A stretch of 4,579 nucleotides of DNA from a virus (lineage: Duplodnaviria > Heunggongvirae > Uroviricota > Caudoviricetes), in IMG/VR virus record IMGVR_UViG_2778261247_000015, positions 1-4,579 of that record; one strand, given 5' to 3'. The stretch's first letter is position 1. The number at the start of each line of letters is the position of its first letter. Both the position numbers and the translations under genes were made by a program. A model generated the notes under the pieces. That model was not told where the DNA came from, ran no database searches, and was given only the letters and a program-made list of their open reading frames with translations. Shown here piece by piece: positions 1-4,371 of the stretch.

Positions 1-420
1 ATGACGGATTATCAGCCATACAGGAAAGGAACTGTGCTTGCCCCAACTGGGCCATGCAATCATCTTCATGTGATTTGTAATGATCCTGTTTATTACCCCG
101 TTAACGATTGTTATTGTGTTTTAGTTGTTAATATTTCTAGTATCAAGGATGGTGTACCCCACGATCCGTCTTGTGTCTTGAATTCTGGTGATCATCGCTT
201 TATCAAGCATCCAAGTTATGTTGTTTACGCTGAAGCTATAATTTGGCGAGTGGATAACATGGTTAGAAAGCAGCGATCGGGTGAGATTTCTGTTCATGAT
301 GATATGCCAGAAGCTACATTCAATAGAATTCTGGACGGTTTTGATATATCTGATGAAGTTACGCCAAAGAACCTTAAATTTAAAAATAAATATTGCGTAT
401 CATCTATTGATGATGAGTAA
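1..420 (+). CDS. Hypothetical Cys/His-rich protein (139 aa), unknown function; first gene of an AT-rich convergent cassette
   Basis: Complete ORF from ATG at 1 to TAA at 418-420; a start further upstream cannot be excluded because the window begins here. GC is visibly lower (about 38-40% by eye) than the roughly 50% of the minus-strand operon. Six Cys and several His (NHLHVICNDP, HDPSCV, DCYCV). No family recognised. Confidence 0.5.
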   Translation: MTDYQPYRKGTVLAPTGPCNHLHVICNDPVYYPVNDCYCVLVVNISSIKDGVPHDPSCVLNSGDHRFIKHPSYVVYAEAIIWRVDNMVRKQRSGEISVHDDMPEATFNRILDGFDISDEVTPKNLKFKNKYCVSSIDDE

Positions 421-459: not shown

Positions 460-633
460 ATGGAAGATCAAAAAGCAACCAAGCCACAGGTTAAGTTCGA
501 CACAATGAAAGCATTCGCAGGTATGGGGGCTGCTGTTGAAGTTCTGATGAAGGCTGCTCCTAATGCGTTCACTCACGCTACTGTCTCTGGTAAAGAGCAG
601 CAGGGTAAGCTTCGTCGTCGCAAAGCAGCATGA
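460..633 (+). CDS. Small hypothetical protein (57 aa, MEDQKATKPQVKFDTMKAFAGMGAAVEVLMKAAPNAFTHATVSGKEQQGKLRRRKAA), basic C-terminal tail
   Basis: Absent from the supplied ORF track; found by manual translation. ATG at 460 is preceded by GGAG (450-453) at 6-nt spacing; TGA at 631-633; a strong intrinsic terminator follows 24 nt downstream. Begins 40 nt after the stop of the 1-420 gene, so probably co-transcribed. Confidence 0.5.
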   Translation: MEDQKATKPQVKFDTMKAFAGMGAAVEVLMKAAPNAFTHATVSGKEQQGKLRRRKAA

Positions 634-652
634 TCATAGCTGGTGCTTTTTG

Positions 653-682
653 AAAACCCGCCTTCAGGCGGGTTTTTTCTTT
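653..682. terminator. Bidirectional rho-independent terminator between convergent transcription units
   Basis: AAAA-CCCGCC(657-662)-TTCA-GGCGGG(667-672)-TTTTTTCTTT. Perfect 6-bp GC-rich stem with 4-nt loop; T-run on the plus strand and A-run (T-run for minus-strand transcripts) on the other side. Sits 24 nt after the 460-633 stop and immediately after the minus-strand stop at 681-683. Confidence 0.75.
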
Positions 683-962
683 AGTGATGTTCTTTGTCCT
701 TCTGTTTGACTGTTCTGACCTGTTCCCACTCGATACGTCCTTCTTCTCGCCTTTTGTCTATGTATTCCGCAAGATCTTGAATATTGATGCAACGTTTTGC
801 TTTTTGTGATGTGCCGATGCGATATGTTGGAACGGGCAACTTACAAGCGTTTGCTTTTGCCTCTGCCGTGGCTGGACTCATACCAAAGTACTTTTGGCTA
901 ACTGCTGAGAGTTCAATGTTTGGGGTATTGAATTCAGCCATCAGTAAAAACAAGGTGTTCAT
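681..962 (-). CDS. Excisionase-like / PrtN-family DNA-binding protein (93 aa from MNTLFLLMAEF...)
   Basis: ORF 681-989; the GTG at 989 and ATG at 974 lack an SD, whereas ATG at 962 is preceded by GGAG at 6 nt, so 962 is the preferred start. Sequence ...SAVSQKYFGMSPATAEAKANACKLPVPTYRIGTSQKAKRCINIQDLAEYIDKRR resembles PrtN/excisionase-like small DNA-binding proteins of enterobacterial prophages (recalled similarity, not searched). Last gene of the leftward operon, ending at the terminator. Confidence 0.55.
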   Translation of the reverse strand: MNTLFLLMAEFNTPNIELSAVSQKYFGMSPATAEAKANACKLPVPTYRIGTSQKAKRCINIQDLAEYIDKRREEGRIEWEQVRTVKQKDKEHH

Positions 963-998
963 AATTTTCTCCATCAAAACCGGCTGCACCCGGGAAAA

Positions 999-3403: not shown

Positions 3404-3750
3404 TGGCTGCCTCCTTTGCGAAGCCGTTCCGCCCATTCTTCAAGGGATTTCTCTGCATATTCACCGGACAGGCCATCAATCGGATGCGATTCATTAGCTA
3501 ACTCTTCTTTTGCTGACAGAATCATGCGTGTAACGTCGAAAACTTCAGCCAAAGGCTTATTGATAAATCCGTGATTGAAAGCAGCAGCAAGACGGCTTGC
3601 GGTATAGTTAATACCCTCGTTGCGAGCCTCAGCACGTACTTCATCGAATTTACGCACCAGATACTCAGCATTTGTTTCATTCACTTTCAGATCTCGCGGT
3701 ACACATTTCCCGCGAAGAAACCCTTCCATTTCGAAAACATTCATGCGCAT
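3400..3750 (-). CDS. Hypothetical protein (116 aa), unknown function
   Basis: ATG at 3750 with GGAG about 8 nt upstream; overlaps the HD gene stop (3741-3743) by 10 nt. No recognisable motif; predicted helix-rich, acidic C-terminus (EEWAERLRKGG). Confidence 0.55.
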   Translation of the reverse strand: MRMNVFEMEGFLRGKCVPRDLKVNETNAEYLVRKFDEVRAEARNEGINYTASRLAAAFNHGFINKPLAEVFDVTRMILSAKEELANESHPIDGLSGEYAEKSLEEWAERLRKGGSQ

Positions 3751-4277
3751 TTGCGTAACTCCGATAACTCGTTAAAACGTTCCATAAACATCCCATAGGC
3801 ATGGCCTGGCGACAGTGGAATAACTTTGAACATCTCTGTTGCCGGGATACCTTCCAGAACAGGCCAGAAAGAGCCATCATCAAGCCCGAGATCACGGCGT
3901 TCGGTTGCCAGCATAATGAGATCGGCATATTTCACTGGCGTGCTCATAACAGGAGGTAACCCGTATTTCTCACGGATTACGGCGTCTATTTTTTCTTCCA
4001 TCCGTTTATAGTCAGGAAGAAGTCGTTTCAGTGGCGCGGGGATGTCCTGGCAATATGCTTCTGTTGCATCATGCATTAACGCTTCAAAAGCAAATTCCTG
4101 CGGCACCAGCTGGCTGCAAAGCACCGCATGCTGGGCGACACTGTAGAAGTGTGAAAGATGTCCTGCAAAGCGACAGATATTTGAAAGGGAAACTGCGATA
4201 TCGTTAATCACGATGTCGTCTTTATTTATCTTGTCATAATAAAAATGCTTCCCGGAAAAAGTTTTAATAAATGACAT
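3741..4277 (-). CDS. HD-domain phosphohydrolase (YfbR-like 5'-deoxynucleotidase family, putative)
   Basis: Metal-binding pattern H...H...HD...D: NICRFAGHLSHFYSVAQHAV then LMHDATEAYCQDIPAPLK, closely matching the HD-domain signature of YfbR-type nucleotidases. The track start at 4289 is GTG; ATG at 4277 has GGAG 6 nt upstream and is preferred. Confidence 0.8.
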   Translation of the reverse strand: MSFIKTFSGKHFYYDKINKDDIVINDIAVSLSNICRFAGHLSHFYSVAQHAVLCSQLVPQEFAFEALMHDATEAYCQDIPAPLKRLLPDYKRMEEKIDAVIREKYGLPPVMSTPVKYADLIMLATERRDLGLDDGSFWPVLEGIPATEMFKVIPLSPGHAYGMFMERFNELSELRKCA

Positions 4278-4371
4278 TTCGTTCTCCACTTTATATGCGC
4301 TGCACCGCGCTGAATTCTGCTAAAAGGAAGCTCTCACCATCCGGTGATTATTGAGTTAATTACGTTTCCAT

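Follow-up and report, generated by a model that had tools for sequence, protein, structure and literature searches.

A 57-amino-acid protein gene of enterobacterial phages accompanies a GNAT-fold protein gene and is very probably orphaned where a PanA cassette lies upstream

Does the short open reading frame at positions 460 to 633 (plus strand) encode a real protein, and if so, with which gene does it belong? The window, i. e. the whole stretch of 4,579 nucleotides of viral DNA that was analysed, reads like the early-left region of a lambdoid prophage. The small frame lies between a gene for a 139-aa protein (1 to 420, plus strand) and a convergent gene for a PrtN-family excisionase (xis; 681 to 989, minus strand; PF11112; phrog_1300, annotated as excisionase). 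The initial annotation had decided for a real but unannotated protein and had proposed it as an antitoxin-like or anti-defence partner of the upstream gene.

The translation and transcription signals on which that annotation relied are indeed present. The Shine-Dalgarno sequence GGAG at 450 to 453 is followed after six nucleotides (ttttct) by the ATG at 460, and since an in-frame TAA is found at 442 to 444 there is no alternative start further upstream. The initiation region (421 to 500) has no significant structure (z = +0.9 against shuffles), and a purine-rich Shine-Dalgarno sequence occurs at equal distance from the ATG in all homologous loci. Downstream of the frame, an intrinsic terminator at 652 to 677 (plus strand) consists of an 11-bp stem with 6 G-C pairs, a 4-nt loop and a T6 tail, that is the G+C-rich stem-loop directly followed by a U-run which characterizes rho-independent terminators. 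Its folding energy is -17.3 kcal/mol (z = -5.2 relative to shuffles), and it ranks first among the terminator-like sites in the window, as had been claimed. The minus strand also folds here (-16.2 kcal/mol, z = -4.2) and the stop codon of xis adjoins the structure; therefore the terminator may serve both strands. Nearly every homologous locus has a terminator behind the small ORF; the Photorhabdus loci L038-L040 show no more than a weak, GC-poor hairpin at this place.

The strongest argument for a protein comes from the homologues. In 26 distinct coding sequences of 53-61 aa there was no stop and no frameshift, whose presence had been named beforehand as speaking against a gene, and the frame is kept down to about 40% identity. 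The dN/dS values (NG86) were 0.07-0.3 for pairs with dS 0.3-1, so that the codon-level comparison across homologous loci, which had been suggested as a check, reveals purifying selection. A chance ORF does not behave like this, and it is almost certain that 460 to 633 is a real gene. The label "unannotated", by contrast, was wrong. RefSeq contains exactly this coding sequence as WP_000390072.1 (hypothetical protein), phage records name it Lys8385Vzw_30 and mEp460 gp24, and the 57-aa protein matches phrog_2741 (annotated as function unknown) with E = 8.4e-36, its residues 1-57 covering profile positions 1-57 of 57. The absence of the ORF may have been limited to the ORF track of the earlier reader. 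The gene is thus already in the databases, and the existence of the 57-aa ORF is not new. A literature search by accession and topic found no publication on the small protein or its GNAT partner described below.

Homologues of the small protein are found in Escherichia, Salmonella, Enterobacter, Atlantibacter, Franconibacter, Cronobacter and Hafnia, and a profile search adds Photorhabdus, Xenorhabdus and phage Eeyore. They share the conserved core FDT..F..MGAAV[DE].L.KAAP ... QG[KR].R...AA-COOH, and in all but one member (L029, which ends ...PRNTEN) the C-terminus consists of a basic stretch with -AA or -VA at its end. An exhaustive profile search, run over 1.84 billion representative proteins, returned only 11 genuine clusters, all of them standalone proteins of 54-61 aa; no fusion or other domain context was present among these representatives. 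One further cluster in this search was a spurious repeat protein and was rejected. The family is small, narrow and standalone, and belongs to phages of Enterobacterales. In phage Eeyore (PP925821.1; L059 3295-3456) the member has 53 aa (MEMKKERLFDTIQTYRKAGEALDFLMKVGPALEESAQAPSQERQGRRRVREAA) and its own terminator; the deposited record does not contain it and calls short ORFs in other frames there instead.

The product of the window's gene (MEDQKATKPQVKFDTMKAFAGMGAAVEVLMKAAPNAFTHATVSGKEQQGKLRRRKAA) is basic (pI 10.2) and ends in an RRRKAA tail (LRRRKAA). A helical body had been predicted for it, and the AF2 model, although of low confidence (pLDDT 65), agrees: a single helix is predicted for residues 15-32, amphipathic, with disordered basic tails on either side. 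A reading as membrane peptide, holin-like protein or type I toxin was ruled out by hydropathy, as the protein has a GRAVY of -0.55 and its most hydrophobic stretch (residues 13-33, mean hydropathy 0.86) includes K17, E27 and K31 and does not qualify as a transmembrane segment. Sequence searches of the 57-aa protein against Pfam, NCBIfam and PDB gave no match. The defence HMMs of PADLOC-DB 2.0 matched neither this protein nor the 139-aa, PanA or GNAT proteins.

With which gene does the small ORF belong? Usually it follows the gene of an acidic GNAT-fold protein of 177-179 aa (mEp460 gp23, phrog_4350), from which it is separated by a structured spacer of 93-196 nt. The order GNAT-fold gene, spacer, small basic-protein gene and terminator was found in Salmonella, mEp460, Enterobacter, Franconibacter, Hafnia and Atlantibacter and in one locus adjacent to cas3. 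The pair occupies three kinds of site: the slot between attP and xis in mEp460 and Salmonella, the slot between the Q antiterminator and the holin in Enterobacter, Franconibacter, Hafnia, Atlantibacter and Eeyore, and a site adjoining a type I-E cas3 gene. The only exceptions to the rule of an upstream GNAT gene among the located homologues are the lineage of the window and L029. The AF2 model of the GNAT partner (pLDDT 77) has GCN5, AtaT, KacT and Naa50 as its top Foldseek matches; its structural neighbours are protein N-terminal acetyltransferases as much as toxins. The isoelectric points of the two proteins are 4.8-5.5 (GNAT) and 9.4-10.2 (small protein), i. e. their charges are complementary.

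Seen from the side of the GNAT gene, the association is without exception. The small ORF lies downstream in 16/16 species-representative genomes (with GNAT identity down to 40%), in 80/80 IMG/VR loci and in phage Eeyore; thus the pair is kept at 97 of 97 GNAT-side loci, in three genomic slots and over a range of GNAT identities of 40-99%. Among complete E.coli genomes 358 carry the GNAT gene, and the full pair is present in each of them (358/358). A GNAT gene lacking the small ORF was never found in the 16 species representatives, the 80 IMG/VR loci or the 358 E.coli genomes. The reverse is not true: the small ORF occurs alone in about 200 further E.coli genomes, the type of the window included, and in 37 of the best 80 IMG/VR loci. 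This asymmetry of co-occurrence rests on two independent losses of the GNAT gene, one in the PanA lineage and one in L029.

The spacer was inspected in mEp460 (L003 3815-4013) and at the equivalent positions of L004, L012, L017, L021, L030 and L034-36. A TAGAC(G) motif sits at or beside the GNAT stop codon and is followed after 16-18 nt by a TAG[GT]AT box; together they form a weak -35/-10 candidate (TAGACG ... TAG[GT]AT). Two hairpins, TTACCTTAAAGGTAA and CCAATCG...CGATTGG, both show compensatory changes. A GAGAC...GTCTC hairpin adjoins the Shine-Dalgarno sequence, and RNAalifold pairs the 5' AGAC of the spacer with the GTCT ahead of it. No Rfam family was found in the spacer of six related loci. 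The whole element is absent from the window.

Some of the loci have neighbours of their own interest. In L004-L010 (Hafnia and metagenomic contigs; e. g. L004 4150-5109) the pair in the Q-holin slot is directly preceded by the gene of a RelA_SpoT (toxSAS-like) protein of 319-352 aa. The Hafnia protein matches the PADLOC candidate system PDC-S33 (E = 1e-112), and the grouping of RelA_SpoT, GNAT and small ORF looks like a small defence island. In the metagenomic contigs L027 (224-1112) and L028 (68-956) the pair lies directly beside type I-E cas3 and Cascade genes, in a setting that is not obviously prophage. A prophage remnant on the dusA side of E.coli O157:H7 JEONG-1266 (L220) has an intact GNAT gene and an intact small ORF, with neighbouring exonuclease, methyltransferase and DUF2303 genes that are annotated as truncated or as having internal stops. 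Here the module outlives the decaying prophage around it. The variant in L029 (5001-5165) has 54 aa, lacks the basic -KAA tail and is not accompanied by a GNAT gene; its gene lies behind a Phage_gp49_66 (PF13876) gene, between head genes and terminase genes, in a phage of another type.

The window contains no GNAT gene. How the small ORF came to stand behind the 139-aa gene is seen when Lys8385Vzw, which has the arrangement of the window, is compared with mEp460. The two phages are collinear across int and attP as far as a point some 87 bp ahead of the GNAT start (left junction, L002 4238 / L003 3197) and again from 13 nt before the ATG of the small ORF (right junction, where Lys8385Vzw L002 5447 aligns with mEp460 L003 4001). 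Between these junctions mEp460 has 803 bp with a promoter region, the GNAT gene and the spacer; the lineage of the window has 1208 bp with a promoter region, the PanA gene and the 139-aa gene. In the window the right-hand junction falls at 447 to 450, where the homology with GNAT-type mEp460 begins 10-13 nt before the ATG, and partial matches start at the same place (query 718/721, corresponding to window 447/450). This shows that the PanA + 139-aa pair was brought in by a cassette exchange, in place of promoter region, GNAT gene and spacer, and that the Shine-Dalgarno sequence, the small ORF and the terminator were kept. Because the swap ended 10-13 nt before the ATG, the small ORF is alone in this lineage, and its position beside the 139-aa gene is a recombination product. 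It follows the 139-aa gene on the same strand at a distance of 39 nt with no terminator between, so it is presumably co-transcribed as the third and last cistron of the PanA operon, which presumably now borrows its terminator. We therefore hold it very probable that the small ORF is orphaned from a GNAT module and is not a partner of the upstream gene.

What would the small protein do? With its GNAT neighbour swapped out, the gene in the window is probably a leftover regulator or "antidote". As the conserved partner is the GNAT protein, "antitoxin-like" is possible only relative to the missing GNAT gene. To our mind there is about an even chance that the best overall explanation, an orphaned small partner that binds the GNAT protein as neutralizer or regulator, is correct. 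Its more specific form, an antitoxin-like neutralizer, is drawn by analogy and is put forward tentatively. In its normal setting the small gene comes second in a mobile accessory ("moron") module of two genes. The small protein would bind the GNAT protein and neutralize or gate it, like the antitoxin of a toxin-first (reversed-order) type II module, and its C-terminal tail of basic residues and Ala-Ala might keep it short-lived in the manner of a ClpXP degron. In the window it would then be an orphan, harmless alone and possibly still useful against incoming GNAT modules, and would have been retained along with its terminator, at which the PanA operon now ends.

Several observations favour a neutralizer. 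The GNAT gene never occurs without the small ORF and the small ORF is found alone, which is the asymmetry expected of a toxin and its neutralizer. The charges of the two proteins are complementary, one helix within disordered tails is typical of inhibitors that fold on binding, the tail LRRRKAA resembles ClpXP degrons, and the pair has stayed intact in the decaying O157:H7 prophage. On the other hand, the small protein lacks a DNA-binding domain of the RHH or any other type, and its gene comes after that of the GNAT protein. The GNAT protein itself is acidic, in contrast to the tRNA-acetylating toxins, it resembles N-terminal acetyltransferases as much as toxins, and only two independent GNAT losses stand behind the asymmetry. 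A more far-reaching version, which we regard as doubtful, would make the pair a module of lambdoid phages that has so far gone unrecognized and that acts, with reversed gene order, in toxin-antitoxin or abortive-infection fashion. Its acidic GNAT enzyme would be checked by a ClpXP-labile single-helix partner of 57 aa with its own promoter behind a structured leader, and the orphan in the window would confer an anti-addiction immunity, by which the PanAT cassette was able to take the place of the GNAT gene.

The roles could also be reversed. The small basic protein would then be a substrate or effector, which the GNAT protein modifies and neutralizes in a way similar to TopAI-YjhQ, or whose lysine-rich chain it acetylates as an on/off switch. 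However, the small ORF is intact in about 200 E.coli genomes devoid of the GNAT gene, with a good Shine-Dalgarno sequence and an unstructured initiation region, which is hard to reconcile with a toxin that depends on the GNAT protein for its control. The gene order is also opposite to that of topAI-yjhQ. We consider this explanation unlikely.

Still less likely, in our judgement, is an autonomous accessory (moron) protein, e. g. a regulator that binds nucleic acids or ribosomes or an anti-defence factor, for which the linkage to the GNAT gene would be a matter of co-transfer only. The small ORF has its own Shine-Dalgarno sequence and terminator everywhere, the -35/-10-like boxes of the GNAT-type spacers (TAGACG, 16-18 nt, TAG[GT]AT) are conserved just upstream of it, it stands alone and intact in both the PanA lineage and L029, and a basic protein is compatible with nucleic-acid binding. 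Yet a pair that is kept at 97 of 97 GNAT-side loci is linked far more tightly than casual association would predict. Selection on the orphan copies speaks less clearly. All 40 of 40 are intact, which could equally mean that the small protein has a function of its own. Their polymorphic codons are nonsynonymous to synonymous at 5:3, compared with 3:9 in the GNAT-linked copies, which points away from an autonomous function but is not significant (Fisher p = 0.17); relaxed selection, of which this is a hint only, was accordingly not accepted.

The reading with which the locus was introduced would make the ORF a third member of the PanA + 139-aa module upstream, with an antitoxin-like or anti-defence role; it has to be judged by what this module looks like elsewhere. 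The PanA (Panacea) gene lies just upstream of the window (L001 5432-6004; PF13274, E = 2e-18). Its TGA stop overlaps the ATG of the 139-aa gene (ATGA), and the window starts there; RefSeq places the start of the second gene 11 codons later (128 aa) than this overlapping ATG in the phage record. The 139-aa protein (phrog_19071), the putative toxin of the pair, has no match in Pfam, PDB or PADLOC. Its homologues in Enterobacter and Proteus prophages always lie directly behind a Panacea gene, among tail genes. In 10/10 of these Enterobacter and Proteus loci the pair of PanA and a 135-150-aa protein has its own terminator directly after the second gene and no homologue of the small ORF (hmmsearch --max, best E = 6.2). 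PanA and the 139-aa protein therefore form a self-contained toxin-antitoxin-like pair, probably an uncharacterized PanAT toxin-antitoxin pair. Conserved presence beside homologous PanA-PanT pairs, as expected of an accessory component, was found for the small ORF in 0/10 other loci.

A third component could be argued from the short distance of 39 nt on the same strand, with no terminator between, and from the fact that some PanAT loci do have accessory third genes. These occur sporadically, though, and probably have no general role in neutralization (PMC8832971), a pattern into which the small ORF behind the 139-aa gene fits. Given also the pairs that stand alone elsewhere and the junction at 447 to 450, partnership with the upstream gene is largely excluded by synteny, and a role as third component of the PanA module is very improbable.

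Two RNA structures overlap or follow the 3' end of the small ORF. Besides the terminator, a weaker hairpin AAAGCAGCA ... TGGTGCTTT at 622 to 649 (plus strand) encloses the stop codon (MFE of 612 to 684, z = -3.3). Its 3' arm is conserved in the Enterobacteriaceae homologues (AGCTGGTGCTTTTTG after the stop), and the hairpin could be the source of part of the codon conservation at the C-terminus. In Rfam, positions 1 to 1100 of the window gave only sub-threshold matches, all driven by the terminator hairpin. A small RNA has been published for this type of prophage: sRNA-17, a 193-nt ArcA-regulated sRNA of E.coli K1 RS218 in mEp460-like prophages, whose deletion is reported to de-repress yfdR and yfdP (PMC7719688). 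A yfdR homologue is present in the window (3741 to 4289, minus strand). sRNA-17 itself maps to L001 12035-12055, between yfdP and the gene of an HTH repressor, outside the window. Its length is similar to that of the 193-196-nt spacers, and an identity of the two was ruled out because primer and sequence data map about 5.4 kb off. That the region is a conserved RNA element (terminator leader, sRNA or retroregulation signal for xis/int) rather than a protein gene can be dismissed as extremely improbable, in spite of the two hairpins, the weak Rfam matches and the published sRNA, since dS is far above dN, frame and length are kept at 40% divergence, the small ORF travels with the GNAT gene to loci without xis, no Rfam family reaches the gathering score, and sRNA-17 lies about 5.4 kb away.

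The partner of a GNAT protein is the preferred reading of the small gene. What is new is that the ORF is half of a strictly conserved, uncharacterized two-gene module of a GNAT-fold enzyme and a 57-aa basic protein, and that this module is found in enterobacterial prophages, among them those of E.coli O157:H7 and Salmonella, at classic hot spots for accessory and defence genes. Should the pair prove to work in toxin-antitoxin or defence fashion, both the kind of partner and the gene order would be new for a GNAT system, and the window would document a clean cassette swap between two such modules in which the "antidote" was left behind. The locus is also a caution that partnership should not be inferred from adjacency alone.

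Among known systems the closest kind is the family of GNAT/RHH type II toxin-antitoxin modules (TacAT, AtaRT, KacAT, ItaRT). These likewise combine a GNAT-fold enzyme of about 175 aa in strict pairing with a small protein on mobile elements, and the best structural matches of the GNAT partner include AtaT, KacT and TacT. Their antitoxins (TacA/AtaR/KacA, DUF1778) carry an N-terminal ribbon-helix-helix DNA-binding domain and are encoded immediately upstream of the toxin gene, usually overlapping it. The pair described here does not fit the family in either respect: the small protein is a single predicted helix that lacks an RHH/DUF1778 domain and is without match in Pfam, NCBIfam or PDB, and its gene follows the GNAT gene in all pairs, at a distance of 93-196 nt. 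For the third feature of such antitoxins, neutralization of the cognate GNAT enzyme by direct binding, the evidence here is indirect and consists of the strict co-occurrence and the complementary charges. Further differences are the structured spacer between the genes, the acidic rather than basic GNAT partner and the absence of the GNAT gene from the window. We know of no characterized antitoxin of a GNAT toxin that resembles the small protein in being encoded downstream and lacking a DNA-binding domain.

With regard to gene order the pair is more similar to HigBA and MqsRA, type II systems of reversed order with an extra antitoxin promoter. In both cases the gene of the enzyme or toxin comes first and that of the small partner second, and promoter-like boxes are found between the genes of the GNAT-type loci. 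There is, however, no relation in sequence or fold, the small partner has no DNA-binding domain, and the boxes are a candidate promoter. TopAI (YjhX)-YjhQ of E.coli, in which a small toxin is held by a GNAT-family antitoxin, shares the combination of a small protein with a GNAT-family protein of about 180 aa, as far as a comparison by description goes. It differs in the opposite gene order, and the occurrence of our small protein alone in many genomes argues against a toxin role. The PanA-PanT loci with third genes (PMC8832971) have in common with the window a pair upstream of a third small gene in the same orientation; here the small ORF is not conserved with the PanAT family (0/10) and derives from a different module. 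Finally, the C-terminal degrons recognized by ClpXP include RRKKAI of MuA, ...LAA of ssrA and ...VAA of RseA (PMC8138137), and LRRRKAA, a basic cluster with a terminal Ala-Ala, resembles them at the level of sequence.
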